A stretch of 64,000 nt of DNA from an uncultured Candidatus Saccharibacteria bacterium (GTDB lineage Bacteria; Patescibacteriota; Saccharimonadia; Saccharimonadales; Saccharimonadaceae). Shown here in pieces: positions 6,106 through 32,481 of this stretch; positions within the stretch are counted from its first letter, which is position 1; each line of letters begins with the position of its first letter. The stretch lies in NCBI GenBank assembly GCA_964593465.1, contig CAZQJY010000001.1, forward strand, positions 74,480 through 138,479. Direction: 5' to 3'. A program made the position numbers and the translations under genes. The notes below the pieces were generated by a model. The model saw nothing but the letters and a program-made list of their open reading frames with translations, made no database searches and was not told the origin of the DNA.

Positions 6106-6148
6106 ATTCGTACATCCATTCACATTATAGTTAAATTGTGATATAATA

Positions 6149-6700: not shown

Positions 6701-6714
6701 TATCGGCCACTCTA

Positions 6715-6767
6715 AGCCCGCCCACCAGCGAGTTGCGAGCCACCTTGGCTCCTCGCTAGGGCGGGCT
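6715..6767. terminator. GC-rich nested hairpin between convergent genes
   Basis: agcccgccc/gggcgggct enclosing agcgag/ctcgct and gagcc/ggctc. Confidence 0.5.
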
Positions 6768-6777
6768 CGTAACTTTT

Positions 6778-7818: not shown

Positions 7819-7914
7819 ACCACTCCTTTTATTGCTTCGTAGGTAACATATTGCTTATGTCTATATATTCATGATACAGTATTTAGTAAAAGAATTGTAA
7901 CTAAAAGTTTAGAG

Positions 7915-8439
7915 GTGGGCATGAATATTCAACCAGATACAACAACCAATATCAGCGACGACCAAGAATTGGCCAAAGTACTTGCTGGTGTCAACGGCGC
8001 CGCAGATGATGCTGCCGAAGAAGTCCAAGAAGAGCCAGAGGTCACCACGGTACCAGCTCCGGAACCAGAACCAATCGCAATCGCACCGCTACCCGTTGCT
8101 TCACCCGTACCCACCCGAGACAATCTCGAAGATGTCAAATTAGAGGCTATCAATGAGCTTCGCCCGCTCATCGACAAACTTGATCTTCCAGCCGAAGAAA
8201 AGTTCGACACCTATCTTCTCCTTATTCGCTGCACAGACGACAAAGAACTCGTACCCCCGGCACACGAAGTTGCCAAACTCATCGAAGACGAATCTCGTCG
8301 TGCACTCGCGCTTCTCGACATCATCAAAGAAATCGACTACCTTGCGAGCAAAACTCCTGTACCAGAAGAACTCGCTACAGAAACTGGCGCACCGGCAGAG
8401 CTTGGTGGTGATATTTCTATCCCAGCTCCAGAATTCTAG
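7915..8439 (+). CDS. acidic hypothetical protein (Saccharibacteria-type)
   Basis: 174-aa ORF with Pro/Glu-rich linker and helical core LKxxAxxELRPL..EKF..YLLLIR. Confidence 0.7.
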   Translation: MGMNIQPDTTTNISDDQELAKVLAGVNGAADDAAEEVQEEPEVTTVPAPEPEPIAIAPLPVASPVPTRDNLEDVKLEAINELRPLIDKLDLPAEEKFDTYLLLIRCTDDKELVPPAHEVAKLIEDESRRALALLDIIKEIDYLASKTPVPEELATETGAPAELGGDISIPAPEF

Positions 8440-8460
8440 GAACTATCACCGTTGTTCCAA

Positions 8461-8529
8461 CAAAACACCCTGTCGTATACAGGGTGTTTTGATTTGCACA
8501 AAGCAAATACCGCTCATACGAGCGGTATT
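8461..8529. terminator. two back-to-back terminators between convergent genes
   Basis: caaaacaccctgt/acagggtgttttg (8461-8491) and aataccgctc/gagcggtatt (8506-8529). Confidence 0.75.
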
Positions 8530-8550
8530 GTCGAATCCTAGTAACCCAAA

Positions 8551-10194: not shown

Positions 10195-10290
10195 AATGTT
10201 CGTTTCGCTCCGCTTCACTTGTGAGACAAAACTACGTTTTTTCTCATCGCGCCAAGAAATTTATGCGAAAATTTCGTCGGGCTGCTCTTT
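10195..10290 (-). repeat. dispersed REP-like element, copy 3, in the groES-groEL spacer
   Basis: cgtttcgctccgcttcact plus small hairpins in an unusually long 135-nt spacer. Confidence 0.45.
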
Positions 10291-10329
10291 TTTCCTTGCC
10301 GTGTGTGCGGAGCTGCTCCTTTCTAGTTA

Positions 10330-10593
10330 TTAAACTGTTGCTAAAATATCTTCTTCTTTGACAATCAAATACTCAACATCATTGATCTTAAGCTCTGTCG
10401 TCGAATACTCTTTATAGACAATCTTGTCGCCCTTTTTTACAGCTTTGGCATCTGGCCCTACAGCCACTACCTCTGCTACAACAGGCTTTTCCTTAGAACT
10501 ATCTGGAAGATACAAGCCGCTCGCGGTTTTTTCTTGCGCTTTTTCCCGCACAGCCACAACACGATCTGCCAGTGGTTTGATAGGTGAACTCAT
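10330..10593 (-). CDS. groS: co-chaperonin GroES
   Basis: IKPLADRVV..KTASGLYLPD..EKP..VAVG..YLIVKEEDILA. Confidence 0.97.
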   Translation of the reverse strand: MSSPIKPLADRVVAVREKAQEKTASGLYLPDSSKEKPVVAEVVAVGPDAKAVKKGDKIVYKEYSTTELKINDVEYLIVKEEDILATV

Positions 10594-10645
10594 GTATTTT
10601 CCTCCGTGTTTATTAGCTTTACATGTCTAATTATAGCCAACACAA

Positions 10646-10672
10646 TTGGCACTTGCAAGCATAGAGTGCTAA
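10646..10672 (-). promoter_or_regulatory. CIRCE element (HrcA operator)
   Basis: minus strand TTAGCACTC-N9-AAGTGCCAA (2 mismatches to consensus), directly after a TATAAT at 10673-10678. Confidence 0.85.
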
Positions 10673-10724
10673 ATTATACATTATCTATTGTATATTTATA
10701 GTTATTATGCTATAGTATAAAAAT

Positions 10725-10994
10725 ATGCCTCGTTTAGAACGCTACCATATTGATAGTTTTTCTGCCGAAAAACACCTAGATCACGATAGCTCACTCAATG
10801 AGCCTGTCTTTATGACAACCCCAGGTGGTCAAGGTGCGTTTGAATATCTCTATATCTCTACCTATGACACTTCAGCAGTCAAATCAGCCCGCATTGGTGG
10901 CACTGCACTCCTTGCTGGCGCCAATTTCAATGGACACCTCAGCCTTGTAGACAACAATGGTGAGCTTACCGTGCGTCATCACTCCGTGTCATAG
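10725..10994 (+). CDS. hypothetical protein
   Basis: 89-aa ORF with TGCTATAGT promoter just upstream; overlaps the 3' end of the convergent gene. Confidence 0.55.
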   Translation: MPRLERYHIDSFSAEKHLDHDSSLNEPVFMTTPGGQGAFEYLYISTYDTSAVKSARIGGTALLAGANFNGHLSLVDNNGELTVRHHSVS

Positions 10995-12138
10995 AGACCC
11001 CTGCACGACGCTGCGCAAGCCATGTCTGAAACGGCATATTGTAATACTGCTCAACACGCGAAATGTAGTCGTCACGATCAGTCTGCGGTATATAGTCACG
11101 AATCTTTCCGTCACGAAACCTCTCGGCAAGATGTTTCATATCTCGTCGCAGCTGAGACCCGCGCGTATCATGTCGTCCGTTCATGGCCATAAATGGCGTG
11201 CTGAGCACATATTTACCAAGTCGCTGCTGCCTGTTTGGCGACTCACCAGACCATTCAGTATCGACGTCCTCAATCCCGCCTCTACCATCAGACCGCGACG
11301 CATCATACCAGATAGGCTTCTCTGTATCTGTAATCTTTTTATACATTTCGTCTTGCCCCTGATCATAAAAATCATAGATGTAGGTGCTTGGCGTCGAGAA
11401 AAATACAGGTTCAAAATCTGTATCAGGTAACGCTCTCTGAAGTAACATATCTGCAATTGTGAGTGTAGCCTTTGAAGATTTCACCTCATCGACAATCGCC
11501 ACATGCTTACCGTCCATCACCGTTGGCATGTCCCATAGGGCAATCAGCTCATCTGTTTTACGCGTCCCTGCCTCAACACTCGTAATCAAATCTTCCGCTT
11601 GCGCCATATGCTCGTCGTCCAGGTATAGTGAACGTATGCGCGCCACTTGATTTAACAGAAAGTCTGAATCCATCTTGTCTAGATTTAATTCACTTGGATT
11701 AATATAACGTCCACGAAAATCCTCACGGCTATATCCCATAGCATACAGCCAGTTCTCTTTGTCGATATTAAGAAATGATGCCTGTGGTTTTTGTTCAGAG
11801 GACATATCCCGCCATAGCTCACTCACCAATGCTCGGACAGGTCGCGCCGATTTATCAAGATAAATAGCACCGTCAACTGGACCTTGTGTGCGACGTTCCC
11901 CATAAAGGAAGCAATCACCTTCATCAATAGATCCGTCTAGCGCACCTATCAGGCGATCTGTATCGTTGATCAGATCTTTCTCTACATCTTCAACAGGTTT
12001 CGACACATACTCCATGCGATACAGTTCGTTGCCATGTTTTGGGTCGCGCCCTGCACCCTTAATAACACCACGAGTAGTCTCGTTGATCACTTCGTACTCG
12101 TAGGGAGAAGATGGAGCTATGTTTATTTTTTCTGACAT
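10966..12138 (-). CDS. hypothetical protein with PRTase-like motif
   Basis: 390-aa ORF; KHVAIVDEVKSSKATL resembles the type I PRTase loop; upstream TTGACA..TATGCTAATAT promoter. Confidence 0.7.
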   Translation of the reverse strand: MSEKINIAPSSPYEYEVINETTRGVIKGAGRDPKHGNELYRMEYVSKPVEDVEKDLINDTDRLIGALDGSIDEGDCFLYGERRTQGPVDGAIYLDKSARPVRALVSELWRDMSSEQKPQASFLNIDKENWLYAMGYSREDFRGRYINPSELNLDKMDSDFLLNQVARIRSLYLDDEHMAQAEDLITSVEAGTRKTDELIALWDMPTVMDGKHVAIVDEVKSSKATLTIADMLLQRALPDTDFEPVFFSTPSTYIYDFYDQGQDEMYKKITDTEKPIWYDASRSDGRGGIEDVDTEWSGESPNRQQRLGKYVLSTPFMAMNGRHDTRGSQLRRDMKHLAERFRDGKIRDYIPQTDRDDYISRVEQYYNMPFQTWLAQRRAGVSMTRSDDAR

Positions 12139-20948: not shown

Positions 20949-20994
20949 TCCGCCAAGAAAAAAGACCCTTATCCGGGTCTTTTTTCTTGGCGGA
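20949..20994 (-). terminator. tRNA-Ser(GCT) terminator hairpin extending into the tRNA 3' end
   Basis: 20-bp inverted repeat tccgccaagaaaaaagaccc / gggtcttttttcttggcgga. Confidence 0.8.
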
Positions 20995-21080
20995 GGATGG
21001 GAGATTCGAACTCCCGCTACAGGTCTCCCCGTACTAACGATTTAGCAAACCGTCCCCTTCAGCCACTTGGGTAATCCTCC
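20988..21080 (-). tRNA. tRNA-Ser(GCT)
   Basis: GGAGGAT acceptor stem, ACGGT-TTGCTAA-ATCGT anticodon arm, long variable arm, GTTCGAATC, CCA. Confidence 0.95.
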
Positions 21081-21188: not shown

Positions 21189-21605
21189 ATGAAACGAACT
21201 CTCCAATACATCGCAGTCGCCATAGCAACCAGTTTTTTGATTGGACTCAGTACACCAGCAGCTGCAGCGCAAATGCAAGGTGGCCTCCCTGGTGGCGCAG
21301 CGGCAGCTCGTGGTGACGGTCAGCCTGCGATACTGTTTGGAGATGGGGGTGTATTTGCCAAAATCACCAACATCATGCTGTTTATCGTAGGTGCGATCAG
21401 TGTCATCATGATTATCATCGGTGGTCTGCGCTACGTGCTCTCTGGCGGCGACTCTGCAAATGTGAGTGCAGCAAAAAACACCATTCTCTACGCCATAGTC
21501 GGTATTATCGTATCACTACTTGCGTATGCTGCAGTTAATTTTGTAACTGGTGCATTTGTCGACAACGGCGGCATGGGTGGTGGCGGTGGAGCAACAAGCT
21601 TCTAA
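21189..21605 (+). CDS. VirB2/TrbC-like (T4SS_pilin-type) pilin
   Basis: signal peptide, then ITNIMLFIVGAISVIMIIIGGLRY..GGD..AKNTILYAIVG; start ATG 21189. Confidence 0.85.
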   Translation: MKRTLQYIAVAIATSFLIGLSTPAAAAQMQGGLPGGAAAARGDGQPAILFGDGGVFAKITNIMLFIVGAISVIMIIIGGLRYVLSGGDSANVSAAKNTILYAIVGIIVSLLAYAAVNFVTGAFVDNGGMGGGGGATSF

Positions 21606-21668
21606 TACATTAGCTGACGCGTAGACCCTAGCCAGACAGAGGTAGACATGCTATAGTAGCAAGAGTCT

Positions 21669-21758
21669 GGAGAGATGACCGAGTGGTTGAAGGTACCGGT
21701 CTTGAAAACCGGCGTGCGGTAAAACGTACCGTGGGTTCGAATCCCACTCTCTCCGCCA
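21669..21758 (+). tRNA. tRNA-Ser(TGA)
   Basis: GGAGAGA acceptor stem, CCGGT-CTTGAAA-ACCGG anticodon arm, long variable arm, GGTTCGAATCC, CCA. Confidence 0.95.
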
Positions 21759-21792
21759 AATAAAATAACCCCCTTGCGGGGTTATTTTATTT
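21758..21792 (+). terminator. bidirectional terminator after tRNA-Ser(TGA)
   Basis: aaataaaataacccc / ggggttattttattt. Confidence 0.8.
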
Positions 21793-21819
21793 GATTGTAT
21801 AAAACCCAGCCTTTGTGAC

Positions 21820-22482
21820 CTAGATCTGCCGCATCAACACCAAAAAAGCTACATTTTCGGCCCCTGCGTCTCGCAGACATCTTACTGCTGCAGCAATAGA
21901 TGCGCCAGTAGTAGTGATATCGTCGCACACTACATACAACGCGTCTTGATCTAGCCGCTTAGCTCTCATCACAAATGCAGTATCTGCCTGTCTTTTACGC
22001 TTGGCAGCCGTTGCACCCACCTGTGCCTTGTTGTGGCGGCGTGCGAGCAGGGGAGTATCGCTGTAACCTCTCAACCGAGCAAATGCCCCAGAAAAGTCAC
22101 TTGTGTGATCAAACCCTCTGCGACGAATATGCGTAGTTGATGTCGGTAGCGGCACGATATGTATTAACCCTGGAAAGATTGGAGCAGCTACATCAAAACA
22201 TTTTGCCACCTGACTATATGCGGCTCGCTTGCACGCAAACTTATACTCATCTACAAGCCTCTGTAGCACACCGTCGCGTTCTGCCAAAACCACTTGTGTT
22301 ACACCCGCTAGGTCCAAACACTGCCTGCACTGTAAACCTACCAACAAACTATCACAAAAGATACATTGTTCACGCGGAGTAAGTTCGATGTCAAAAAAAC
22401 AATTATCGCAAATTTGTGCTCCAATCTCACCACAAGACAAACAGTAGTGGGGTGCCAGTCGTGAAAATAGCGAATCAAACAT
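21820..22482 (-). CDS. comF: ComF family protein (zinc ribbon + PRTase-like)
   Basis: CxxC pairs, YKF, VPLPT..RRGFDH, DDITTTGAS. Confidence 0.85.
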   Translation of the reverse strand: MFDSLFSRLAPHYCLSCGEIGAQICDNCFFDIELTPREQCIFCDSLLVGLQCRQCLDLAGVTQVVLAERDGVLQRLVDEYKFACKRAAYSQVAKCFDVAAPIFPGLIHIVPLPTSTTHIRRRGFDHTSDFSGAFARLRGYSDTPLLARRHNKAQVGATAAKRKRQADTAFVMRAKRLDQDALYVVCDDITTTGASIAAAVRCLRDAGAENVAFLVLMRQI

Positions 22483-22589
22483 TGTACTTTTTACGTATTT
22501 ATACCCTTGTTATTGATTATAGACCCTTGTTTGGTATACTAAAAGAGACTATTTGTCGACCTAGAGCCTAGAGAAAAGTGGAGGATATC

Positions 22590-23060
22590 ATGGCCCGTAA
22601 ACAAAACGACGATTTGCTAATCGAAGATGAACTAGCGGCAGCGTTTCTTGACGATACTGATTTGACCCAGGATCCACAAGACGATGTTGCGATAACACAG
22701 CCGACCGTAGACGAAGACGAGGTGGAAGACGACTTTCCCGGACAGCTAGCTGTAGATGTATATGAAACACAAGACGAGCTGGTTGTAAAAGCTCGTACTG
22801 CAGGCGTAAACAAAGATGACCTAGATGTGAGTATCAGCGAGGGTATTCTCACTATCAGCGGTACACTCAGCAGTGGCGACGAATCAGAAGCCAATAACTG
22901 GCACATCCAAGAATGCTACTGGGGTGAGTTTAGCCGCACACTAGCTTTGCCTTTGCCTGTCAAAGAAGACGAAGCTAAAGCCGCTCTCAAAGATGGCGTA
23001 CTAAGCATCAGCTTCCCGAAGGTAGAGCAGGAACAAGCCAAAAAGATTCAAATCATGTAA
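22590..23060 (+). CDS. Hsp20/alpha-crystallin small heat-shock protein
   Basis: VDVYET..LVVKARTAGV..LTISG..ECYWGEFSRTLALP..A.LKDGVLSI..PK; SD GGAGG before ATG 22590. Confidence 0.92.
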   Translation: MARKQNDDLLIEDELAAAFLDDTDLTQDPQDDVAITQPTVDEDEVEDDFPGQLAVDVYETQDELVVKARTAGVNKDDLDVSISEGILTISGTLSSGDESEANNWHIQECYWGEFSRTLALPLPVKEDEAKAALKDGVLSISFPKVEQEQAKKIQIM

Positions 23061-23080
23061 TATACGCCTCCGGGCCATAC

Positions 23081-23120
23081 ATACAAAACTGCCACCAGTT
23101 TCCTGGTGGCAGTTTTGTAT
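23081..23120. terminator. intrinsic terminator of Hsp20
   Basis: 18-bp inverted repeat atacaaaactgccaccag / ctggtggcagttttgtat. Confidence 0.8.
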
Positions 23121-23212
23121 TAGACCTTCCATACCCTGGTCTACATAGCAGTTTATATTCAAAAGAGGATACAGGCCCTGAATTGTTCCATAGAGCCGAC
23201 CTCATCCAAAAA

Positions 23213-23238
23213 ATCACCCCTTCCATGGAAGGGGTGAT
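23213..23238 (-). terminator. terminator of the pilin array
   Basis: atcaccccttcc / ggaaggggtgat with a T-run downstream on the minus strand. Confidence 0.7.
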
Positions 23239-23260
23239 AGGCGAGTAGCAACTATTCGTA

Positions 23261-23677
23261 CTAAGTTGTAGTAAACGTGCTAGTCACGAACTTCACAACT
23301 GCGTAGGCAAGTATCGCCACGATGAGGCCAATGATCGCATACATGATAGTATTTTTGGCTTGCTCTACCTGAGACGTATTACCGTTTGAAGTAGTATAGC
23401 GAATACCGCCAATGATAAGCATAATCACGCTAATCGCACCAATCAAAAAGAGCATCACGTTGGTAATTGTCTGAAATACACCACCATCGCCAATGAGCTC
23501 ATCTGGAGTGTCGTTACCCTTTGAACAGCTTGCACCGCCACTAATAGTCAGAGTGCTAGTGTCACAATCTGCATAGGCCGGGGTTGCCGCAGTGCCAAGC
23601 ACTACACCAAATGCCATCACGAATGCAAATGTTGATGCAGCCGCAATATTTTTTAGTTGTGTTTGTAATTTCTTCAT
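23261..23677 (-). CDS. VirB2-like pilin (array gene 6)
   Basis: ITNVMLFLIGAISVIMLIIGGIRYTTSNG..AKNTIMYAIIGL; Cys pair in the N-terminal region. Confidence 0.87.
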   Translation of the reverse strand: MKKLQTQLKNIAAASTFAFVMAFGVVLGTAATPAYADCDTSTLTISGGASCSKGNDTPDELIGDGGVFQTITNVMLFLIGAISVIMLIIGGIRYTTSNGNTSQVEQAKNTIMYAIIGLIVAILAYAVVKFVTSTFTTT

Positions 23678-23735
23678 CTTTTGATTTCCTTCCTTATAGT
23701 CTGTTTATACCATACCTGAGTACAAAAATAAATGT

Positions 23736-24104
23736 TTACTGGAACCTCGATACGACAAACTGTACAATCGCATATGCCACAATAGCCACAATCAAACCGA
23801 CTACCGCATAGAGGATTGTATCTTTGGCTGATTTTGTCTGGCTCGCATCGCCGTTTGATGTTACGTAGCGGATACCACCGATAATGATTGCGATTACAGC
23901 GATTGCGCCAATGAGGAAGAGTAGTATGTTTGTGATAGTGGTGATACCACTCTCAACAGTCGTGCCTCCAGTTTGTCCAGTTGCACCTGCACCATCTAAA
24001 ATCTTACTCTTGGCGTCTGCGAAGACACTACTTGTCATAGCCAAAGATACCGCCAGTGCGGACAACGTTGCGCCCGAAGCCTTTTTGTATATGTTTTTAA
24101 TCAT
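23736..24104 (-). CDS. VirB2-like pilin (array gene 5)
   Basis: ITNILLFLIGAIAVIAIIIGGIRYVTSNGD..AKDTILYAVVGL; SD AAGGA before ATG 24104. Confidence 0.87.
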   Translation of the reverse strand: MIKNIYKKASGATLSALAVSLAMTSSVFADAKSKILDGAGATGQTGGTTVESGITTITNILLFLIGAIAVIAIIIGGIRYVTSNGDASQTKSAKDTILYAVVGLIVAIVAYAIVQFVVSRFQ

Positions 24105-24147
24105 TTTTATATTCCTTATGTTTTTCATATTGCGTATTATATACTAC

Positions 24148-24546
24148 CTAGAATCTGTTTACAACAAAGTTGACAATACCACCAGCCATCAGTGCCACAA
24201 CCAAACCAATCACTGCGTACATGATTGTATCTTTGGCTGATTTGACCTGGCTTGGGTCACCATTTGCTGTAGCGTATTTGATGCCACCAATGATAATCAT
24301 AATGACTGCAATAGCGCCCAAGAGATAGAGAAGAATATTGATAATATTGCCAATCATCTTGCCTAGATTGTCGCTACCTGCACTACATACTGCATTGCTA
24401 CCAGCCGCCCTACAGCTATCCTGCACAACGTCTATAGCCTGTACGCTGTGTGTTGCTGCCACAGATACCAATAAGATTGAGGCAACCAACGCCACAACAA
24501 CTGCTACCAGCTGCAAAGTTTGCTTTTGTAGTATGTCTTTTATCAT
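24148..24546 (-). CDS. VirB2-like pilin (array gene 4)
   Basis: IINILLYLLGAIAVIMIIIGGIKYATANGD..AKDTIMYAVIGL; Cys pair. Confidence 0.87.
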   Translation of the reverse strand: MIKDILQKQTLQLVAVVVALVASILLVSVAATHSVQAIDVVQDSCRAAGSNAVCSAGSDNLGKMIGNIINILLYLLGAIAVIMIIIGGIKYATANGDPSQVKSAKDTIMYAVIGLVVALMAGGIVNFVVNRF

Positions 24547-24878
24547 TTGGCCATTCCTCCTGCTATAAATGATGTAATCGTAAATGCAGCCATAACAAGC
24601 ACCAGACCGATTACCGCGTAGAGAATAGCGTTTTTCGCCTGCTTAATCTTGGCTGCGTCGCCATCAGCTGTCGCATAGTAGATACCTGCTATCACAATTA
24701 CCAATACAGCTATTGCGCCAGCCAGCCAGTATACATTCTTGAGTACGCCATTTAACACGGCAGTATCTGTCGCTTTTGGTATGCCTGTGCTGCCTACATC
24801 TACGCCACCCAGACTATCACCAAACATAGTCTGGGTAGAGGTAGTGTAGGAAACGATGGTGTGTAGTATGTTATTCAT
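24543..24878 (-). CDS. VirB2-like pilin (array gene 3)
   Basis: WLAGAIAVLVIVIAGIYYATADGD..AKNAILYAVIGL. Confidence 0.85.
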   Translation of the reverse strand: MNNILHTIVSYTTSTQTMFGDSLGGVDVGSTGIPKATDTAVLNGVLKNVYWLAGAIAVLVIVIAGIYYATADGDAAKIKQAKNAILYAVIGLVLVMAAFTITSFIAGGMAK

Positions 24879-24888
24879 ATCTATCCTC

Positions 24889-25290
24889 CTAGATATTACT
24901 TAGTACAAACCTTACGATTGCAACCGACATGATAGATAGTAGCAATCCTATACATGCATTGATAATAGTTTTGCGACCTTTAGTATTGCCATCTACACTA
25001 CCTGCGCTGGTAATATACTGGAATCCACCATAGATAATGAATGCTGCCGATACATACGCCGCTACGTGTAGTAAAATCTCGACGATATTGCCAGCTACAG
25101 TGGCAGCAAACTTTGGAAAGTCCTTGACCTCAATATTACAATTACCGTCCGTTACCCCGCGATACCACGGAGGCATTGTAAGCAAGCCACCGCCACAACC
25201 ACTCTGGGGAGCTGCAGCTGCAACACCACCAAACGCAAGTGAGACACCGAATGCCACCACCCCCGCAAATAGTATAAGTTTTTGCATCAT
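24889..25290 (-). CDS. VirB2-like pilin (array gene 2)
   Basis: C..LLTMPPWY..C, FIIYGGFQYITSAG..GRKTIINACIGL. Confidence 0.82.
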   Translation of the reverse strand: MMQKLILFAGVVAFGVSLAFGGVAAAAPQSGCGGGLLTMPPWYRGVTDGNCNIEVKDFPKFAATVAGNIVEILLHVAAYVSAAFIIYGGFQYITSAGSVDGNTKGRKTIINACIGLLLSIMSVAIVRFVLSNI

Positions 25291-25676
25291 GAGAACACTG
25301 CCCCTGGTACCAAGAAATTAATAGCTGCGCCCATTAGTGCGTAGAGCACAAGGCCTATCACTACATTGCGGATTATCTCTTTGGCTTGATTTACCTGCTG
25401 CTCACTGTCGTGTGCAGATGCATAGAGAATCGACGCGTAAACAATAGCACCTACCGCCACTATACCGATGATGACCGTAAGGATACGGATAAACCACGCC
25501 AACATCTTAATGATGCCTTCCTTGCCCGTACCATCGCCGCAGTCGATGAGAGACGTTTTGATGCCTCCACAGCTAGCTGCTTGTGCCACATCGGGTGTCG
25601 CAAAAGCCAACATGCCGGCTGCACCGAGTCCAACGATGCCTGCCGCAAATATTGATAGTAGTTGTTTGATATTCAT
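25287..25676 (-). CDS. VirB2-like pilin (array gene 1)
   Basis: SCGGIKTSLIDC, IVYASILYASAHD..AKEIIRNVVIGL; start ATG 25676. Confidence 0.82.
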   Translation of the reverse strand: MNIKQLLSIFAAGIVGLGAAGMLAFATPDVAQAASCGGIKTSLIDCGDGTGKEGIIKMLAWFIRILTVIIGIVAVGAIVYASILYASAHDSEQQVNQAKEIIRNVVIGLVLYALMGAAINFLVPGAVFS

Positions 25677-25903
25677 AGTTCTTATGTACCAAGATATACT
25701 ATAGTGCAAATCACTGCAATACTATGCTAATTTTTTACTTTCAAGAGGCACGTCTATACTCTACAAAGACCTTGTGCTTATACTAGGCAATCGTGTAGAG
25801 TATAGACAGAGATGTCGGGGATAAAACAGACATACCATTTTATGAGTATTGCCGCTCAGTCGTGGCTACTGGGTGAGTTTCCTGACACCAAAGGAAAAGT
25901 GTC

Positions 25904-28591
25904 ATGATTCACAAGACGCTCTCCAGGGCTTTTCACCACAACAAACCGCTATTTTTTGCAGTAGCCTTTTTGATGGTCTCGATTACTAGCCTCGCATTCA
26001 ATGTAGCGAATTACTCTGTCTCATATGCTTGGTGCGAGAACAGGATAGATGGCTCATCCGAAAGAAATCACGACTGCCTAATCGATATGTATGACGAAAT
26101 GGGTAGCGAAGACCTAGCAGAAGGGTACACATTCGACCAGTACAATGCAGACATAGACACTTGCATGGGTGGCAATGCAGACGGAACATCCGGTAGTCCT
26201 GACGACCGTTCCGAATGCGCCAATGCCGTACTAACCTGCCGAAGACACTCCGTAGATATAAGCAAGTGCAGCAACGGCGACGTAACAGCCAGTATTGCTG
26301 AGTGGTGCAACGATGGCAAGAGGGGAAGTGCCGGTAGCGATGACTGTGACAGGCTAAAGAGCGAAAACGAAGACAGCTATGGCAAGTTACGCGACTCCTA
26401 CAAGGACAAGGCACGTGAGCATTGTTCTACAGCACAAACTCAACGAGATAGAGAGAATTGCGCAAAAGCCATAGAGGATGCATGTAATATACCTGGGCTG
26501 CAAGATGATGGCACTCCAAGCGGAACAAGTGCAGTAGCCGAGAGAAGACGGCTAAATAGTTGTTACGCAGAGGCACTAATGAATACCGCCACAACAAAAG
26601 AAGATTGTGAAGGTAGGGGTGGTAAGTGGCAAGCAAATAAGTGTGAGCCGGGTGATATTGAGTGTAAAAATGCCGCTGGCGATACAAAAACCGTTAAACT
26701 TGGCGAAGAATGTCCCGCTGGTTACACACCATCCGACCCTAATAATAATCCTCTCGGGGGAGATCCCAACTCTGGGGATCCGGATGCAGGAGGAGAGGAA
26801 GTTACTTGCGCCGTAGATGGAGTAGGCTGGATTGTCTGCCCGATATCAAACTTCCTCGCCAAAATAGCAGACACAGCATACAACCTCATAGAGGGCTTTC
26901 TTGGCTACAACATGATGAGCGACGCAGCTGCTAAAGATAAGCTACAAAAACAATGGTCCGTGTTTGCCAACTTGGCCAATGTAGCTTTTGTAATAGTATT
27001 TCTGATTGTTATCTTTTCGCAGGTGAGCGGATGGGGGATGGATAACTACTCACTCAAACGTATGATGCCGCGTCTTATTGTTGGCGCAATCCTCGTCAAC
27101 GCATCTTTTTGGATATGCGCCATAGCAGTTGATATGTCAAACGTACTAGGCACCAACCTCAAAGAACTACTTACACAGTCGGCAGGGAGCGGTGCGAATA
27201 ATGGCACCTGGGAAAGTGTGATGTCGAGTATTTTGACAGGTACCGCCGTTGTAGGAACAGCTATCGTCATTGGGGCAGTCGGAGCAGCACTTTCGGGCGG
27301 ATTCTTTGCACTACTAGGTCTAGCTCTACCTGTTCTAATAGGTGCACTAGTGGCAATCTTTACAGTATTCCTAATACTAGTAGCTCGCCAAGCACTCATC
27401 ACTATCCTTATAGTGCTTGCGCCCCTTGCGTTTGTAGCCAACCTACTCCCAAATACCGAGCAGTGGTACAAGAGATGGCAAAAAGCATTTATGGGTGTTT
27501 TGGTAGTCTTCCCTGCCATAGCTATACTTTTTGGCGGAGCCCAACTAGCTGCAGGTATTCTCATGAGTGCTGGCGGTATCACTATGAATATCTTTGCACT
27601 TGGCGTGCAGGCAGCACCACTCTTCTTAGTACTTACCGTCCTCAAAAAGCTGATGCAGGTGGATGGAATTGCAGGTATGTCGCAACGGTTTGGCGGCAAG
27701 TTAGGTGGCGCGCTCGGAAAAAAAGGACAAGAGGCAGCGAACAGGCGGCAAGCAAAATTCAATGCAAACCATATGGCACCCAGTAATCACAGCAGGTGGG
27801 ATCCTAGAAGATACGCAGGCGGAGCCGCACGGCGCGCAAAACAACATGCATGGGAGGACGGAATAACAGAGCAAAGAGCCAATGAGGCCTTTCGTAGTAG
27901 TAATTCAGAACGCCTGAGAAACGACCCTGAGTATAGAATGCGTATGGCTGGCAATAATGAAGATACGGCGAATCTACTCCGAGCACAGGCTGAGCAGCAG
28001 GGAGTTGAAGAGGCTACTAAGCATAAACAAGCATTTCAAACTAGATACGATGACATGAGTAGTGATGCGATAATGAGTGAGCTTGGCCTAACAATAGACA
28101 ATGACGGCAACATAGATGGCATGGAGCAAGCACTCGAGCGGAACGGTGCGCAGGTTGCTGCCGCAGTAGCCGCCCTTGGAAAGCGAGGTTTCGACAATAA
28201 CGGACACCTTGCTGGTATATCTAATGCAGTCATTGCGCATGCCGAAGGGTCGTCTATGGCACGTGGCGCAGTGGCTGAGTCTATGACTAATCTCGGTGTT
28301 ATGGGAGCGGGTGCTGCAAACGCAATGCGCATGGAGGGACCTGGTGGAGACAATCTTGATCGGCGACTAGCTGCATCAGCAGCAGGTATGAGCGAAGAGA
28401 ACATCGCAAAACTTCGAGGAAGTGAATTTGCAGCCGTTGCCAACGCAGCCCAACAAACAGGCAACTTCGATGCTATGACGAATTTAGTTGATAAATCAGA
28501 AAGACTTATTAACCCCGACCATCGATTGCATGGTCAGATAAAAGAAGGTACCATCCAAGAGATGGAACGATTAGGAATAAGACGACCATGA
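25904..28591 (+). CDS. VirB6/TrbL-like polytopic membrane protein with Cys-rich N-terminal domain
   Basis: CAVDGVGWIVCP, W..F.N.AN..F.I.FL..IFSQ, LVAR..L...L.PLA...LLP..WY.RW TM core; first gene of the T4SS-like operon. Confidence 0.75.
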   Translation: MIHKTLSRAFHHNKPLFFAVAFLMVSITSLAFNVANYSVSYAWCENRIDGSSERNHDCLIDMYDEMGSEDLAEGYTFDQYNADIDTCMGGNADGTSGSPDDRSECANAVLTCRRHSVDISKCSNGDVTASIAEWCNDGKRGSAGSDDCDRLKSENEDSYGKLRDSYKDKAREHCSTAQTQRDRENCAKAIEDACNIPGLQDDGTPSGTSAVAERRRLNSCYAEALMNTATTKEDCEGRGGKWQANKCEPGDIECKNAAGDTKTVKLGEECPAGYTPSDPNNNPLGGDPNSGDPDAGGEEVTCAVDGVGWIVCPISNFLAKIADTAYNLIEGFLGYNMMSDAAAKDKLQKQWSVFANLANVAFVIVFLIVIFSQVSGWGMDNYSLKRMMPRLIVGAILVNASFWICAIAVDMSNVLGTNLKELLTQSAGSGANNGTWESVMSSILTGTAVVGTAIVIGAVGAALSGGFFALLGLALPVLIGALVAIFTVFLILVARQALITILIVLAPLAFVANLLPNTEQWYKRWQKAFMGVLVVFPAIAILFGGAQLAAGILMSAGGITMNIFALGVQAAPLFLVLTVLKKLMQVDGIAGMSQRFGGKLGGALGKKGQEAANRRQAKFNANHMAPSNHSRWDPRRYAGGAARRAKQHAWEDGITEQRANEAFRSSNSERLRNDPEYRMRMAGNNEDTANLLRAQAEQQGVEEATKHKQAFQTRYDDMSSDAIMSELGLTIDNDGNIDGMEQALERNGAQVAAAVAALGKRGFDNNGHLAGISNAVIAHAEGSSMARGAVAESMTNLGVMGAGAANAMRMEGPGGDNLDRRLAASAAGMSEENIAKLRGSEFAAVANAAQQTGNFDAMTNLVDKSERLINPDHRLHGQIKEGTIQEMERLGIRRP

Positions 28592-28605
28592 GGATAATGT
28601 AGGAT

Positions 28606-29433
28606 ATGGCAGTATATAAAGTACCCCAAGACATCGAAGCCGAAGACAAGCTCCTCGGGCCGTTTACATTTCGACAATTCATCTATCTCATCGTAGTGGC
28701 GATGTCTGGTGGGCTGGGCTATATACTCTGGCAGCTAGCTCCGCCACTCGCGCTCATCTCTGCGCCACCAATTATCGTATTTGGCACACTTGCGCTACCA
28801 CTCAAAAAAGACCAGCCTATGGAAACATACGTAGGCGCAATGGTATCGTTTTACTTCCTCAAGCCCCGCAAGCGTTTTTGGCAGCCAGACGGCATCGAAT
28901 CACTCGTAGAGATTACTGCACCAAAAAACGCACCACCAGATCGCGTGAAGCACATCACGCAAGACGAAGCACGCGACCAGCTTGACTACCTATCCGACAT
29001 CGTAGAGTCTCGCGGCTGGAGTGTGCGTGGTGTTGGTGTTCCCCTGTCTGGCATCTCTGACACCACTGCCATGCAGCAACAACAGCCCGCCACGAGCGAA
29101 TACGACTCAGACGACATGTTTAGCAAAGGTAGCGCCAGCGCCCAAAGGTTTAGCCAAATCCTCGATAGCAGTGGCGGTACAGCTCGCGGCAAGCTACTTA
29201 CACAGTTCCAAGAACAAGCAAGCGCAATGCCCGCAGCACCGCCAGAACCAGCTACAACACAAAATCCTACGCCAAGCACTAGCGTAAACAGTGTATCTAC
29301 TGGTATAATTGACCTTGCAAACGATAACGCGGGACTTTCAGTGTCTGCGATGGCGAAAATCGCCAATATCCAGACCGATACAAAAGACCACGGATTATCA
29401 GATGGTGATGAGGGCGAGTTATCGTTACATTAA
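28606..29433 (+). CDS. PrgI family (VirB3-like) membrane protein
   Basis: YKVPQDIEAEDKLLGPFTFRQF, two TM helices, DQPME..KPRKRFW. Confidence 0.85.
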   Translation: MAVYKVPQDIEAEDKLLGPFTFRQFIYLIVVAMSGGLGYILWQLAPPLALISAPPIIVFGTLALPLKKDQPMETYVGAMVSFYFLKPRKRFWQPDGIESLVEITAPKNAPPDRVKHITQDEARDQLDYLSDIVESRGWSVRGVGVPLSGISDTTAMQQQQPATSEYDSDDMFSKGSASAQRFSQILDSSGGTARGKLLTQFQEQASAMPAAPPEPATTQNPTPSTSVNSVSTGIIDLANDNAGLSVSAMAKIANIQTDTKDHGLSDGDEGELSLH

Positions 29434-29470
29434 ACAGACAAAGTTGTTAGTAAACTAGGAGGGGTAGGGA

Positions 29471-30646
29471 GTGCAACCACAAAACCAGCAATATCCGCCG
29501 GCGGCAGATCCGTATGGCTATAATCCTGCAGCTCAGGGTGTACCCGCACAGCCTCCTATGGACCCGCAGCAGATGCAGCAGCCATATGTTGCCGCTCCTC
29601 AACCTGTGGCGGGAGTAGTAGACCCCTACACACAGCAACCCCCTATAGCACCAGCTTATCCGCCGGCGGCAGATCCGTATGGCTATAATCCTGCAGCTCA
29701 GGGTGTACCCGCACAGCCTCCTATGGACCCGCAGCAGATGCAGCAGCCATATGTTGCCGCTCCTCAACCTGTGGCGGGAGTAACGGATCCGTATGCCGGG
29801 CAACCCTCGGTAGCAATGCCGGAGCCAATCCCCACAGCCCCTACAACAAACCCAAATCTCATCCCCGACACAGCAGTGCAAGGTGCAACAGGTGCCAAAG
29901 AAGCGCCAAAAAAGGCACCTCAGCGCCCCAAAAACACCACCCAAAACACCTTACTCTTCTCGGAAATCCGTGACAATATGGTAGTTATGGCAGATGGCAG
30001 TTTTCGTGCGGTGATTGCCTGCGAATCCATCAACTTCGACCTAATGAGCGCGCGCGAACGCGAGGGTGTCGAGTTTAGTTACCAAAACTTCATCAATTCA
30101 CTCACACACCCAGTCCAAATCCTCATTCGTTCGCAAAAAGTTGACATCGGCCCCTACCTAGACCGCCTGACAAAAATCCGTAAGTCACAAGACAACATGC
30201 TCCTTGGGGTACTCATGGACGACTACATAGATTTTGTGGACATCCTAGCAGAGGAAGCCAACATCATGGACAAAAGCTTCTACGTAGTGATTCCGTATTC
30301 ACCAACAGGCGACCTAAGTAACATCAAAGACAAGGGCAAGGGATTTTTGGCTGGACTATTTGGTAGCACTACCAACCAAGCCATCACCAAGATCGACAAA
30401 ATCACTTACGAAAAAGCTAAGGATGAAATGAAACACCGCATCGACTCAGTCACAAGCGGGCTTTTCGCTATGGGTGTACACTGCGCGCAACTCAATACCA
30501 AGCAGCTCGGTGAACTTTACTATAGCTATTACAATCCAGACATCGCCATCCGCGAGCCTCTGGGTAACTTCGAATCCAACACCTTTACCTATGTACGCAA
30601 AGGCGAGGGCGAAGCACAAAGACCAAACATAGGAGGAAAAATATAA
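29471..30646 (+). CDS. T4SS VirB4 N-terminal-like partner (TcpE/TraC-type) with Pro/Gln-rich repeat N-terminus
   Basis: TQNTL..SEIRDN, NFDLMS.RE.E..Y..F.NSL..PVQI.IRS, FYVVIPY; upstream of the VirB4 ATPase. Confidence 0.72.
   Translation: MQPQNQQYPPAADPYGYNPAAQGVPAQPPMDPQQMQQPYVAAPQPVAGVVDPYTQQPPIAPAYPPAADPYGYNPAAQGVPAQPPMDPQQMQQPYVAAPQPVAGVTDPYAGQPSVAMPEPIPTAPTTNPNLIPDTAVQGATGAKEAPKKAPQRPKNTTQNTLLFSEIRDNMVVMADGSFRAVIACESINFDLMSAREREGVEFSYQNFINSLTHPVQILIRSQKVDIGPYLDRLTKIRKSQDNMLLGVLMDDYIDFVDILAEEANIMDKSFYVVIPYSPTGDLSNIKDKGKGFLAGLFGSTTNQAITKIDKITYEKAKDEMKHRIDSVTSGLFAMGVHCAQLNTKQLGELYYSYYNPDIAIREPLGNFESNTFTYVRKGEGEAQRPNIGGKI
29492..29782 (+). repeat. 126-bp perfect direct repeat (29492-29617 and 29657-29782; period 165 bp)
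   Basis: identical nucleotide copies encoding YPPAADPYGYNPAAQGVPAQPPMDPQQMQQPYVAAPQPVAGV. Confidence 0.92.
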
Positions 30647-32481
30647 TGGCCAAAAAGCAAGACGCTGTCGATATTGCTGCGCAGCAGCGTGCACGTGAAC
30701 AGGCCGAGGTGGAACAGGCATTCCTCAAGGGTGTCAATACACTTCGTGACCTGATTGCTCCTAGTAGCCTAGAATTCCACGCCGATCATTTCCGCCTAGG
30801 TACCAAGTATGGCCGCACGCTCTACATCTACGGCTATCCACGCCAGCTCTACACTGGCTGGCTTAGTAGTATTATCAACATGGACGAAGTGCTCGACGTA
30901 AGTATGTTCCTCTACCCAGTGGACACGCAAGTAGTGATGAACAACCTCAAGAAAAAGGTGACTCAGCTCGAAGCTAGCATGGCTATTAATCAAGAAAAAG
31001 GCAAGACACGTGACCCAGGCCTTGAAGCTGCGCTGCAAGATGCAGAGGAACTGCGAGACGAGTTGCAGGTGGGTAGCGAGAAATTCTTCCGCTACGGCCT
31101 CTATATTACGCTATACTCCGACAACCTAGAGGATATGACGTTTGTTCAAAACAAGGTAGAAACATTGTTTGGCCAGCAGCTCGTATTTAGCAAAGTAGCA
31201 AGCAGCCAGCAGGAACAAGGGCTCAATAGTACCGTGCCACACCTGATGGATCAGTTGCAGATTCGCCGCAACATGAACACAGGTGCTATCTCGACGTCGT
31301 TCCCATTTACCAGCGCCGACCTGACGCAAGAGCAGGGTATCCTCTATGGTATAAACATGCACAACAACGGTCTGGTAATCTTTGACCGCTTTACACTAGA
31401 AAATGCCAACATGGTGGTGTTTGCAAAGTCTGGTGCTGGTAAATCATTTACCGTCAAACTCGAGGCAGTTCGCTCGATGATGGTGGGCGCAGATGTACTT
31501 ATTATCGACCCAGAAAACGAGTACCAGAAGCTTAGCGATGCCGTGGGCGGCAGCTACATTCGTCTGAGCCTCAACTCTGACGTGCGCATCAATCCGTTTG
31601 ACCTACCAAAGGTAATCGACACAGAAGATAGCGACGACGCGCTACGCGCCAACCTTGTAACACTCCACGGCTTGCTCCGTCTCATGCTTGGCGGTGCTAC
31701 AGCTACAAACACCAACGTGACACTTAGCCCAGAGCAAGAAGCCGACCTAGACCAGGCACTTATCGACACCTATGCACGTATCGGTATCACTAGCGATCCA
31801 CTCACACACACCAGCCCTCCACCAACTATGAGTGACCTCTATGATACATTACTCCATATGGGTGGCACCGGGCCACAGCTAGCGCAACGCCTACGCAAGT
31901 TTACGAGCGGTACGTTTGCGGGTATATTCTCACAGCAGAGCAACGTAGACATCAACAACTCTATGGTCGTCTTCAATATTCGCGACCTAGAGGACGAGCT
32001 ACGGCCAATTGCCATGTATATCGTACTCAGCCACATCTGGAACATTACTCGCTCACAGCGCAGGAAGCGTATGCTCATTGTGGATGAGGCATGGCAACTC
32101 ATGAAATACGAAGACTCAGCAAACTTCCTCTTTAGCCTCGCCAAGCGAGCTCGTAAATATTACCTGGGGATCACCACAATCACACAGGATGTCGAAGACT
32201 TTATGAGTAGCAAAATGGGCCGCGCTATCGTAGCCAACAGCTCTATGCAGCTACTACTCAAACAATCCGCTAGTGCAGTAGATGTACTCGGCGATGTATT
32301 TAAACTCACAGAAGAAGAGCGCAAGCGCCTCGGCAGCTTCCCGGTAGGGCAGGGGCTTTTCTTTGCGGGGCAAAATCACGTACATATACAGGTGATAGCT
32401 AGCCAGACAGAGACGCAACTCGTCACGACAAATCCGCTCGAAGCAGTTAAGCAGGAAAAACAGCAAGAACAGCAAGGGTAA
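30646..32481 (+). CDS. VirB4-like T4SS ATPase
   Basis: AKSGAGKS Walker A, IIDPENEY, INPFDL, IVDEAWQLM Walker B, KRARKY, TQDVEDF. Confidence 0.92.
   Translation: MAKKQDAVDIAAQQRAREQAEVEQAFLKGVNTLRDLIAPSSLEFHADHFRLGTKYGRTLYIYGYPRQLYTGWLSSIINMDEVLDVSMFLYPVDTQVVMNNLKKKVTQLEASMAINQEKGKTRDPGLEAALQDAEELRDELQVGSEKFFRYGLYITLYSDNLEDMTFVQNKVETLFGQQLVFSKVASSQQEQGLNSTVPHLMDQLQIRRNMNTGAISTSFPFTSADLTQEQGILYGINMHNNGLVIFDRFTLENANMVVFAKSGAGKSFTVKLEAVRSMMVGADVLIIDPENEYQKLSDAVGGSYIRLSLNSDVRINPFDLPKVIDTEDSDDALRANLVTLHGLLRLMLGGATATNTNVTLSPEQEADLDQALIDTYARIGITSDPLTHTSPPPTMSDLYDTLLHMGGTGPQLAQRLRKFTSGTFAGIFSQQSNVDINNSMVVFNIRDLEDELRPIAMYIVLSHIWNITRSQRRKRMLIVDEAWQLMKYEDSANFLFSLAKRARKYYLGITTITQDVEDFMSSKMGRAIVANSSMQLLLKQSASAVDVLGDVFKLTEEERKRLGSFPVGQGLFFAGQNHVHIQVIASQTETQLVTTNPLEAVKQEKQQEQQG

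Follow-up and report, generated by a model that had tools for sequence, protein, structure and literature searches.

A set of seven divergent VirB2-like pilins beside a type IV secretion system in a Saccharibacteria genome

The window analysed here, a stretch of 64,000 nucleotides from an uncultured Candidatus Saccharibacteria bacterium, contains seven intact ORFs for VirB2-like pilins, six in tandem on the minus strand (P1 to P6) and one apart on the plus strand (P7). Judged from their sequences, they are ancient positional orthogroups across Saccharimonadales, each with head features of its own. Because they are old, position-fixed families with group-specific heads, the seven are probably non-redundant subunits of a single extracellular structure associated with a type IV secretion system (T4SS), either a heteromeric pilus or a conduit spanning the wall. 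The pilin array has already been published for Saccharibacteria (Wang 2023; Quinonero-Coronel 2025; a 2025 FEMS review), the present locus being this genome's copy, and the whole inference of the original prediction, a heteropolymeric or switchable filament for host recognition, is likewise already in the literature. What we add is that the pilins form position-fixed old gene families with group-specific heads, that the array is a single operon with one terminator, and that it shows no sign of a switching system.

Seven pilins with a common membrane core

A profile search with PF18895 (T4SS_pilin) matched all seven ORFs, six of which scored higher than the curated cut-off of 26.6 bits, bearing out the prediction of seven VirB2-like pilins at these positions; in the Pfam search, P4 and P5 also passed PF04956 (TrbC/VirB2). 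Nowhere else in the 925-kb genome does PF18895 find a match, so the clustering of P1 to P7 is far from chance. All seven also matched NF045849, a model of 80 positions for a pilin-like protein of Mycoplasma ICEs, over the two-helix core, with P4 and P5 above its 40-bit cut-off and the remaining five under it.

P1 (25287–25676, minus strand; 129 aa; PF18895, 33 bits) opens the array and is the most divergent of these pilins, with a signal peptide, a Cys loop (ASCGGIKTSLIDC), a two-helix hairpin and a C-terminal PG(A/G)xF. P2 (24889–25290, minus; 133 aa), which at 21 bits falls under the PF18895 cut-off, carries the head motif C...PxWYRG...C. P3 (24543–24878, minus; 51.5 bits), whose 111 aa are the maximal ORF, is free of Cys and of an N-terminal signal peptide, its only hydrophobic segments being the two core helices. 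P4 (24148–24546, minus; 132 aa; PF18895 56 bits, PF04956 33.8, NF045849 44.6) has a Cys pair of the form C-x8-C, and P5 (23736–24128, minus; 130 aa; 39.5, 28.6 and 42.1 bits, respectively) a Gly/Thr-rich head without Cys. The last array gene, P6 (23261–23677, minus; 138 aa; PF18895 48.7 bits), encodes a canonical pilin with a well-conserved core, a Cys pair and the motif QG.DQP..LFG; a search for its relatives returned 1870 homologs and, among the matches listed, all belonged to PF18895. P7 (21189–21605, plus; 138 aa; PF18895 33.3 bits), monocistronic and Cys-free, ends in a Gly-rich tail, GGGGGATSF, and has P6 as its closest paralog (51% identical).

Pairwise identity among the seven paralogs is 24–51%, and only six columns are invariant in their alignment. 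As predicted, a two-helix core common to all is joined to divergent N-terminal heads, four of which hold a Cys pair in the stretch that follows the signal peptide and precedes helix 1 (P1 C36/C46, P2 C32/C51, P4 C45/C54, P6 C38/C51), the pair being absent from P3, P5 and P7. The motif proposed originally, G..Y..S.GD....AK..I.YA..GL, has the wrong spacing, since GD and AK are separated by six residues, not four; the consensus is GGIxYxTSxGDxxQVxxAKxTIxYAVIGL, degenerate in P1 and P2. A signal peptide followed by two hydrophobic helices is found in six of the seven, and P3 has the two helices only. AF2 models place the hairpin at residues 67–96/101–136 of P6 (pLDDT 79.9) and 52–87/92–122 of P1 (pLDDT 70.1). 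A Foldseek search against the PDB gave no significant match. A fold as simple as a helical hairpin is not diagnostic in any case, and PF18895 has no solved structure.

A single operon next to a Gram-positive-type T4SS

The genes P1 to P6 form one operon with a single strong terminator. The P1 stop and P2 start, as well as the P3 stop and P4 start, overlap by 4 nt, the remaining gaps are of 10 nt (P2/P3), 19 nt (P4/P5) and 58 nt (P5/P6), and an intrinsic terminator (23213–23238, minus; an 11-bp stem with 6 GC pairs, then a T run) sits 23 nt past the P6 stop. A promoter-like site just upstream of P5 (24164–24136, minus) may be an internal promoter, and another lies ahead of P7 (21128–21157). The divergent intergenic region between the pilin and T4SS operons (25677–25903) contains a perfect 14-nt inverted repeat (25752–25765/25794–25807). 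We searched the DNA for long repeats, silent cassettes and invertible elements or promoters, and found none.

The pilin genes adjoin a T4SS of Gram-positive type, comprising VirB6-like, PrgI/VirB3, TrsD-like and VirB4 proteins together with wall hydrolases (M23, amidase and lysozyme). In the VirB6-like position is a polytopic membrane protein of 895 aa (25904–28591, plus) with a Cys-rich N-terminal ectodomain, for which no Pfam or NCBIfam match was found. It is followed by a PrgI/VirB3-like protein (28606–29433, plus; PF12666, 51.9 bits), a TrsD-like protein with a weak match (29471–30646, plus; NF041427, 25.8 bits, far under the cut-off) and a VirB4-type ATPase (30646–32481, plus; PF19044, PF12846, PF01935), 81–91% identical across Saccharibacteria. 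Neither a relaxase nor a coupling protein is present in the cluster. Between the array and P7 lie two synteny markers, a gene for an Hsp20 small heat-shock protein (22578–23060, plus; PF00011, 69 bits), which is beside the pilin array in all relatives examined, and one for a ComFC-like phosphoribosyltransferase (21820–22482, minus; weak PF00156 match), which is outside the pilin system. P7 is flanked by tRNA-Ser(GCT) (20988–21080, minus) and tRNA-Ser(TGA) (21669–21758, plus), both identified with ARAGORN.

Correspondence with Ca. Southlakia epibionticum ML1

The array of Ca. Southlakia epibionticum ML1, described by Wang et al. (2023, Cell; PMC10633639) and reviewed in PMC12857230, is syntenic with that of the window gene for gene, the correspondence being one of position. 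P1 to P6 match, in order, SEML1_0014, 0015, 0016, 0017, 0018 and 0019 (annotated 'pilin'), and P7 matches SEML1_0024; both members of the class Saccharibacteria thus have six tandem genes and one opposite-strand gene of family PF18895, of similar length one by one, 132/185/103/126/127/138 + 144 aa in ML1 and 129/133/111/132/130/138 + 138 aa in the window. They also share as neighbours Hsp20 (SEML1_0020, essential in ML1; PMC10633639), ComFC (SEML1_0021, K02242 in the ML1 table), a tRNA-Ser (SEML1_0022, counterpart of the TGA isoacceptor) and the divergent VirB6/PrgI/VirB4 operon. Only in ML1 does an extra gene of 1392 bp part the tRNA-Ser from the single pilin gene, and in place of the single 895-aa gene it carries two large VirB6-like genes and a small one, positional counterparts annotated as TrbL/VirB6-like by structure (PMC10633639).

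The functional data come from ML1. In single-host co-culture, the six tandem orthologs were all scored essential (SEML1_0014–0019, GD/ES/ES in every case), and the P7 ortholog SEML1_0024 was dispensable (NE; PMC10633639, Table S1). Per-gene non-redundancy is nevertheless unproven by these calls, because they concern short genes of one operon with 11–15 candidate sites each, were made with a smoothing HMM, and come from a paper in which polar effects are not discussed.

Conservation of position and of head features

Reciprocal best hits in 13 other Saccharibacteria genomes were found for P1 in 13, P2 in 12, P3 in 11, P4 in 7, P5 in 9, P6 in 11 and P7 in 12, with P4 and P5 thus poorly separated as orthogroups. 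Pilins with the same position label clustered in a tree of 105 sequences from 16 genomes, the labels requiring 31 changes as compared with 71.9 after shuffling (0 of 200 shuffles were as low), and SH-aLRT support was 100 for the P1 clade and 94 for P2 and P3. The set is not rigidly fixed across lineages: some have recent duplicates, such as two identical copies in the genome L050. PF18895 copies per genome range from 0 to 14 in the order (median 7; 41 genomes). The family is carried by 150 of 151 sampled Patescibacteria genomes.

Heads differ between paralogs, as predicted, but recognisable motifs are kept within each orthogroup. Among the 13 P1 orthologs, most have CGGVxTxxIxC in conserved or recognisable form, a PxWYRG-type motif and the Cys pair are conserved in those of P2, and P3 orthologs (94–115 aa) likewise have no leader; the Cys pair occurs in all seven reciprocal-best P4 orthologs and in most of those of P6, and the P7 group retains its Gly-rich tail. 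In each orthogroup, conservation was lower in the head than in the core (21–57% versus 47–78% identity to orthologs; 45% versus 70% for P6). P7, at 78% identity in its core, is the best conserved pilin; over its full length it is 87% identical to its counterpart in G005, a genome of the same genus. The array pilins diverge more quickly than neighbour genes, being 37–65% identical to those of G005 as compared with 75–86%. The original idea of a heteropolymer fits these results in that the multiplicity points to non-redundant subunits, with reciprocal-best orthologs in most of the 13 genomes and six genes scored essential in ML1, and is compatible with heteromeric assembly.

A proposed structure and its alternatives

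The locus is the form that the T4SS pilin array of Patescibacteria takes in Saccharibacteria, with P1 to P6 probably transcribed together, divergently from a VirB6/VirB3/TrsD/VirB4/hydrolase operon, and P7 as a seventh, monocistronic paralog some 1.7 kb beyond the array. Each pilin is a membrane hairpin of two helices, and its N-terminal head would point outward; six are exported via a signal peptide, which P3 lacks. The seven would co-assemble, and may form a filament and have a role in host contact; P4, P5 and P6 (and P7) may be shaft-type subunits, and the deeply divergent P1, P2 and P3 specialised minor subunits for priming, as adaptors or at the tip.

Instead of an extended pilus, the hairpins could be membrane- or wall-spanning parts of the T4SS channel, as a short stalk or a ring built together with VirB6 in which different paralogs take different layers, or membrane anchors. 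We consider this unlikely, although no filament or pilus has been observed for any Patescibacteria T4SS (PMC12857230), the monoderm cell has a wall to be crossed by a channel, and P1 to P3 differ strongly from the canonical pilin type. Other Patescibacteria fuse PF18895 hairpins to very large proteins (frames of 1239–3312 aa), showing that this domain is capable of an anchoring role; in the window, however, the heads are short and unfused, and P4, P5 and P6 retain the canonical VirB2/TrbC signature. Moreover, in a Gram-positive T4SS, that of pCF10, the VirB2-like protein PrgF has been modelled and probed as a pilus, predicted to stand on a VirB6 pentamer (ter Beek et al. 2025, bioRxiv 10.64898/2025.12.18.695078). 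PrgF (MPF-FATA-type) and the window pilins are alike as small VirB2-like hairpins encoded near virB6 in monoderm T4SSs, but the PrgF system is conjugative, has a relaxase and uses one pilus-forming protein per plasmid; where Gram-positive plasmids encode several VirB2-like candidates, modelling likewise gave a single pilus-former per plasmid, which counts against a heteromeric structure. A tblastn search of P3 against plasmids found nothing.

Several tandem, divergent VirB2 paralogs also occur in T4SSs of other host-dependent bacteria, namely Bartonella Trw (trwL) and Anaplasma phagocytophilum (virB2), diderm systems with lineage-specific amplifications proposed to diversify the host-contact surface. 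The window pilins would resemble them if they formed a repertoire of variants, serving host range or antigenic variation, with alternative major pilins of which one or few are used at once or selected by the host, which we regard as improbable. The lower conservation of heads, the fast divergence of array pilins within the genus and the variable copy number agree with such a repertoire, and the analogy is offered by Quinonero-Coronel et al. (2025, Microb Genom; PMC12102498), whose available text treats arrays as variable. Conversely, the window organism is monoderm and its paralogs are ancient, in conserved order and with group-specific motifs, rather than recent lineage-specific amplifications. 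These orthogroups, the fixed head features and Cys pairs, the single operon, whose junctions are coupled and which has one terminator, the lack of switching elements in our search, and the essentiality of six ML1 orthologs with a single host favour fixed, non-redundant subunits and speak against the switchable filament proposed originally.

That the seven are redundant, functionally equivalent major pilins serving dosage is very improbable, since, despite similar cores in P4, P5 and P6, the closeness of P6 to P7, a dispensable P7 ortholog and recent duplicates in some genomes, the paralogs are mostly far apart, their heads are conserved group by group, every tandem ortholog scores essential in ML1, and the orthogroups persist throughout the order in genomes of ~0.6–1.1 Mb, which lose redundant genes.

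In its available text, PMC12102498 describes 441 Patescibacteria VirB2 arrays, of 2–11 tandem PF18895/PF04956 genes near virB4, abundant in Saccharimonadia and in clusters without relaxase, all as in the window; their within-array identity (mean 25%, maximum 54%) is close to ours. Multi-copy arrays are the Patescibacteria norm, and the window cluster has neither relaxase nor coupling protein; on both counts the premise that conjugative T4SSs normally have one major pilin needs qualifying. Positional orthogroups, group-specific Cys motifs and a leaderless P3 were not found in that text, which left open a co-option of the pilins from diderm systems. The NF045849 matches tie the window pilins to Mycoplasma ICEs and thereby to a monoderm (MPF-FATA-type) lineage, although the Mycoplasma proteins (Mbov_0395, ICE_MMCAP2_0565) are single-copy and belong to a mobile element whose host lacks a wall.

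Seven pilin genes in the window

As originally predicted, the window contains seven VirB2-like pilin genes, all of them intact ORFs. Six are arranged in tandem on the minus strand and are numbered here in transcription order, P1 (25287-25676), P2 (24889-25290), P3 (24543-24878), P4 (24148-24546), P5 (23736-24128) and P6 (23261-23677), and a separate gene, P7 (21189-21605), lies on the plus strand. In profile searches, all seven products matched the Pfam T4SS_pilin family PF18895, six with 33-56 bits, above the curated cut-off of 26.6 bits, and P2 with 21 bits; P4 (33.8 bits) and P5 (28.6) also passed the cut-off of 27.9 bits for PF04956 (TrbC/VirB2). All seven could likewise be aligned to NF045849, the NCBIfam pilin-like protein of Mycoplasma ICEs, with P4 and P5 above its cut-off. 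These last matches hint that the family may belong to a monoderm (MPF-FATA-type) T4SS lineage, rather than being borrowed from diderm systems; co-option of the pilin from diderm systems is left open in the available text of PMC12102498. Searched in six frames, the complete 925-kb assembly yielded exactly these seven PF18895 genes.

Identity among the paralogs is 24-51%. Their alignment revealed a common C-terminal core, GGIxYxTSxGDxxQVxxAKxTIxYAVIGL, which is degenerate in P1 and P2; the residues of the motif originally described were thus right, although the spacing from GD to AK is six residues and not four. By hydropathy profile, six of the proteins have two helices preceded by a hydrophobic N-terminal segment; in P3, the two helices stand alone. 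The Cys pair noticed earlier in four of the pilins is found in P1, P2, P4 and P6, once in each, between the signal peptide and helix 1.

A published counterpart in strain ML1

The array is a real feature that had been correctly recognised, and it is already known: both the observation and the inference drawn from it are in print, having been reported by Wang et al. and Quinonero-Coronel et al., and the window therefore adds one more instance only. The 2025 survey of Quinonero-Coronel et al. lists, for 383 Patescibacteria assemblies, 441 VirB2 arrays with 2-11 genes each and a mean identity within an array of 25% (PMC12102498, as given in the parts available).

The closest published parallel is in Ca. 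Southlakia epibionticum ML1, for which the available supplementary tables list six tandem genes, SEML1_0014 to SEML1_0019 (Table S1), and PF18895 in five of them, 0014, 0015, 0016, 0018 and 0019 (Table S2; PMC10633639). All six are classed as GD/ES/ES, with almost no insertions, and ML1 is the only strain for which essentiality is known; the genes so classed are short and belong to one operon, and the available text leaves polar effects unaddressed (PMC10633639). Next come Hsp20 (0020), ComFC (0021), tRNA-Ser (0022) and a hypothetical gene (0023), followed on the other strand by a seventh 'pilin', SEML1_0024, non-essential and with around 22 insertions per time point (PMC10633639, same tables). 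Apart from the extra gene 0023 in ML1, order and gene lengths in ML1 and the window match gene for gene.

Array positions correspond to old orthologous groups

We examined a tree of 105 pilins from 16 Saccharibacteria genomes, each labelled by its position in the array. The labels clustered strongly on the tree, requiring 31 changes as compared with 71.9 after shuffling (0 of 200 shuffles were as low), with SH-aLRT values of 100 for the first-position clade and 94 for those of the second and third positions. The separate copies grouped together, beside the last-position genes. Reciprocal best hits, sought in 13 genomes, were obtained in 13 for P1, 12 for P2, 11 for P3, 7 for P4, 9 for P5, 11 for P6 and 12 for P7.

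Each group also carries features of its own: CGGVxTxxIxC and a C-terminal IPGGxF in the P1 group; C...PxWYRG...C in P2; a length of around 94-115 aa, with no signal peptide and a head (the N-terminal region) without Cys, in P3; a Cys pair spaced 8-12 residues in P4; QG.DQP..LFG, usually with a Cys pair, in P6; and, in P7, a Gly-rich tail that ends in TNF or TNV, the Cys pair being absent. Heads and cores (the shared two-helix hairpin) were compared by segment amino-acid identity, and in every group the heads were less conserved (21-57%) than the cores (47-78%). The original description of variable heads holds to this extent, but the variation lies mostly between old paralogs. Synonymous sites are saturated for a head versus core dN/dS, because P6 shares only 64% identity with its nearest homolog in the database, and identity to same-genus orthologs is 35-74%. 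In the nearest genome (G005, of the same genus), identity to the window is 75-86% for housekeeping neighbours and 87% for P7, but only 37-65% for the pilins of the array, indicating a higher rate of change in the array than around it. Of the seven pilins, P7 is conserved best, with a core at 78% on average, although its ML1 ortholog, SEML1_0024, is the sole non-essential one; P7 may be needed in a life stage that co-culture misses.

The family was found in 39 of 41 genomes of the same order, with a median of 7 copies and exactly 7 in 16 genomes, and in 150 of 151 genomes spread over the phylum, with 1-15 copies. Nanosynbacter, Microsaccharimonas and several environmental lineages share an arrangement in which around six genes stand in tandem and one more copy lies on the opposite strand, at a distance of 2-4 kb; the complete layout of array, Hsp20, ComFC, tRNA-Ser and opposite-strand pilin is also present in 11 of the compared genomes (G042-G045, G047, G048 and G001-G005). 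Thirteen distant genomes of other Patescibacteria classes contain arrays of 5-9 genes; on these, HMMs of the Saccharibacteria orthogroups did not discriminate, the top two scores being nearly equal, and the seven orthogroups are therefore shown within Saccharimonadales only.

Several loci depart from this pattern. In G005 (locus L101), around 2 kb of other sequence (8366-10293) separates the rest of the array (5870-8365) from the P1 ortholog and an extra pilin (10294-11193). Two adjacent pilin genes of a Saccharibacteria MAG (L050:1289-1714 and 1819-2244) have identical kept-column sequences, a very recent tandem duplication from which it follows that arrays still gain copies. In other Patescibacteria, some array members have 7-12 cysteines, and the PF18895 hairpin is embedded in ORFs of great length, 1239 and 1260 aa (L108:2841-6560 and L109:2407-6189), and, at G140:C1:86515-86718, in an open frame of 3312 aa.

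Expression signals and interpretation of the array

P1 and P2, as well as P3 and P4, overlap by 4 nt, the other gaps being 10, 19 and 58 nt. Shine-Dalgarno sequences are clear for P3, P4 and P6, and a single strong intrinsic terminator, with a stem of 11 bp, follows P6. Promoter-like sites were predicted ahead of P5 and for P7. The pilin operon and the VirB6-like gene diverge from a 228-bp region that contains a perfect 14-nt inverted repeat (25752-25807; GTCTATACTCTACA / TGTAGAGTATAGAC, 28 nt apart), which could be an operator common to both operons.

The best reading of these data, and in our judgement the probable one, is that P1-P6 would be co-expressed, non-redundant subunits of a single T4SS-associated extracellular structure, because positional orthology is ancient in these very small genomes, heads are conserved and group-specific, the genes are laid out as an operon, and all six orthologs are published as essential. 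On divergence alone, P4, P5 and P6 (and P7) would be shaft-type pilins, and P1, P2 and P3 specialised minor subunits. Type IV pili and T2SS pseudopili are established cases of such a division of labour, which, to our knowledge, has been shown for no T4SS pilus. More tentatively, and with the balance somewhat against so specific a scheme, the six fixed pilins of the Saccharibacteria T4SS might form an obligate heteromer, in which P3 would be a leaderless subunit, the deeply divergent, Cys-looped P1 and P2 would serve as minor pilins in priming or at the tip, and P4-P6 would build the shaft, with P7 as a dispensable, better-conserved pilin of another life stage.

What comparison adds to the known feature, as read from the sequences, are the fixed orthogroups, their conserved Cys motifs and the leaderless P3, together with a conserved P7 whose ML1 ortholog is dispensable and a connection with the pilin-like family of Mycoplasma ICEs. 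These additions leave the category of the finding unchanged and are useful for experiment design, as they name candidate shaft and minor subunit genes for the tractable ML1 system. The pilin array is the oddest feature of the Patescibacteria T4SS, and the comparison moves the question that it poses away from pilin variability serving host range and closer to an assembly of several fixed subunits.

A short channel or anchor, in place of a long pilus, is an unlikely but reasonable alternative, in favour of which it can be said that the hairpin is fused to giant proteins in other members of the phylum and that no filament has been seen: the literature consulted on polymerisation into an extracellular filament, in the parts available (including PMC12857230), contains no report of it for any Patescibacteria T4SS. 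AF2 models of P6 (pLDDT 79.9, from a 62-sequence alignment) and P1 (pLDDT 70.1, 13 sequences) each show a long hairpin of two helices preceded by a signal helix, with a short extra helix within the Cys loop of P6 and heads of low confidence in both. A Foldseek search of the PDB with the P6 model retrieved only generic helical hairpins, a fold too simple to discriminate (best E-value 1.7), and the seven-paralog profile found no relative among PDB sequences, its sole match being by chance (E = 0.48). A tblastn search with P3 for a PrgF-like link gave no match in 72,556 plasmids. Family membership rests on profile matches and genomic linkage; the fold agrees with VirB2 without proving it.

The switchable filament raised in the original prediction, which would draw on a repertoire of variant pilins, is weakened to the point of being improbable. 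Heads and copy number do vary, as such a repertoire would have it, but the paralogs are old positional groups, and the repeat scan detected only 44-97-nt stretches at 70-77% identity, corresponding to core-coding homology, with no long repeats, silent cassettes or invertible promoter and no inverted repeats bracketing a promoter, so that nothing was seen that might drive cassette switching, and such a mechanism was rejected. Recent lineage-specific tandem amplification, in the style of Bartonella Trw or Anaplasma, was rejected, as the window paralogs group with their same-position counterparts in other genomes and not with one another.

The neighbouring T4SS genes

Relatives of its VirB4 place the genome in Saccharibacteria (Saccharimonadales). 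In Patescibacteria, epibiotic growth requires the T4SS (PMC11665869, PMC12857230). In window coordinates, a Gram-positive-type T4SS lies downstream of the array on the opposite strand, in the order 895-aa polytopic protein (VirB6 position), PrgI/VirB3, a weakly TrsD-like protein and a VirB4-type ATPase; the cluster also includes large wall hydrolases (M23, amidase and lysozyme). PrgI (PF12666) and the VirB4-type ATPase (PF19044, PF12846) are 3-5 kb from the array, and the six tandem pilin genes 5-7.4 kb from virB4. Between the array and P7 are Hsp20, a ComFC-like gene and tRNA-Ser, with a second tRNA-Ser on the other side of P7.

The relaxase family PF03432, the only one searched, was absent from the whole genome. 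Weak TraG-D_C / T4SS-DNA_transf matches (G000:C10:7775-8173 and G000:C3:89299-89691) occur in ORFs of 999 and 915 aa, possible candidates for coupling-protein-like ATPases, on other contigs and unlinked to the T4SS cluster. With one relaxase family covered, these results agree with the published view, according to which the system is probably no standard machine for DNA transfer.

At many VirB4-anchored loci (L007-L020 and others), there was no pilin within 10 kb upstream of VirB4, the arrays being further away there; the distance from array to virB4 is around 5 kb in the window (25676-30646) and around 16 kb in G041:C2 (L007, L087), whose VirB4 is the closest one (91%). The VirB6-like region between array and virB4 is highly plastic. 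Among widely differing Saccharibacteria (L007-L086), VirB4 (30646-32481) keeps 79-91% identity, against 35-41% for ComFC and 31-40% for the VirB6-like protein in the same genomes, which is an unusually strong constraint on the ATPase.
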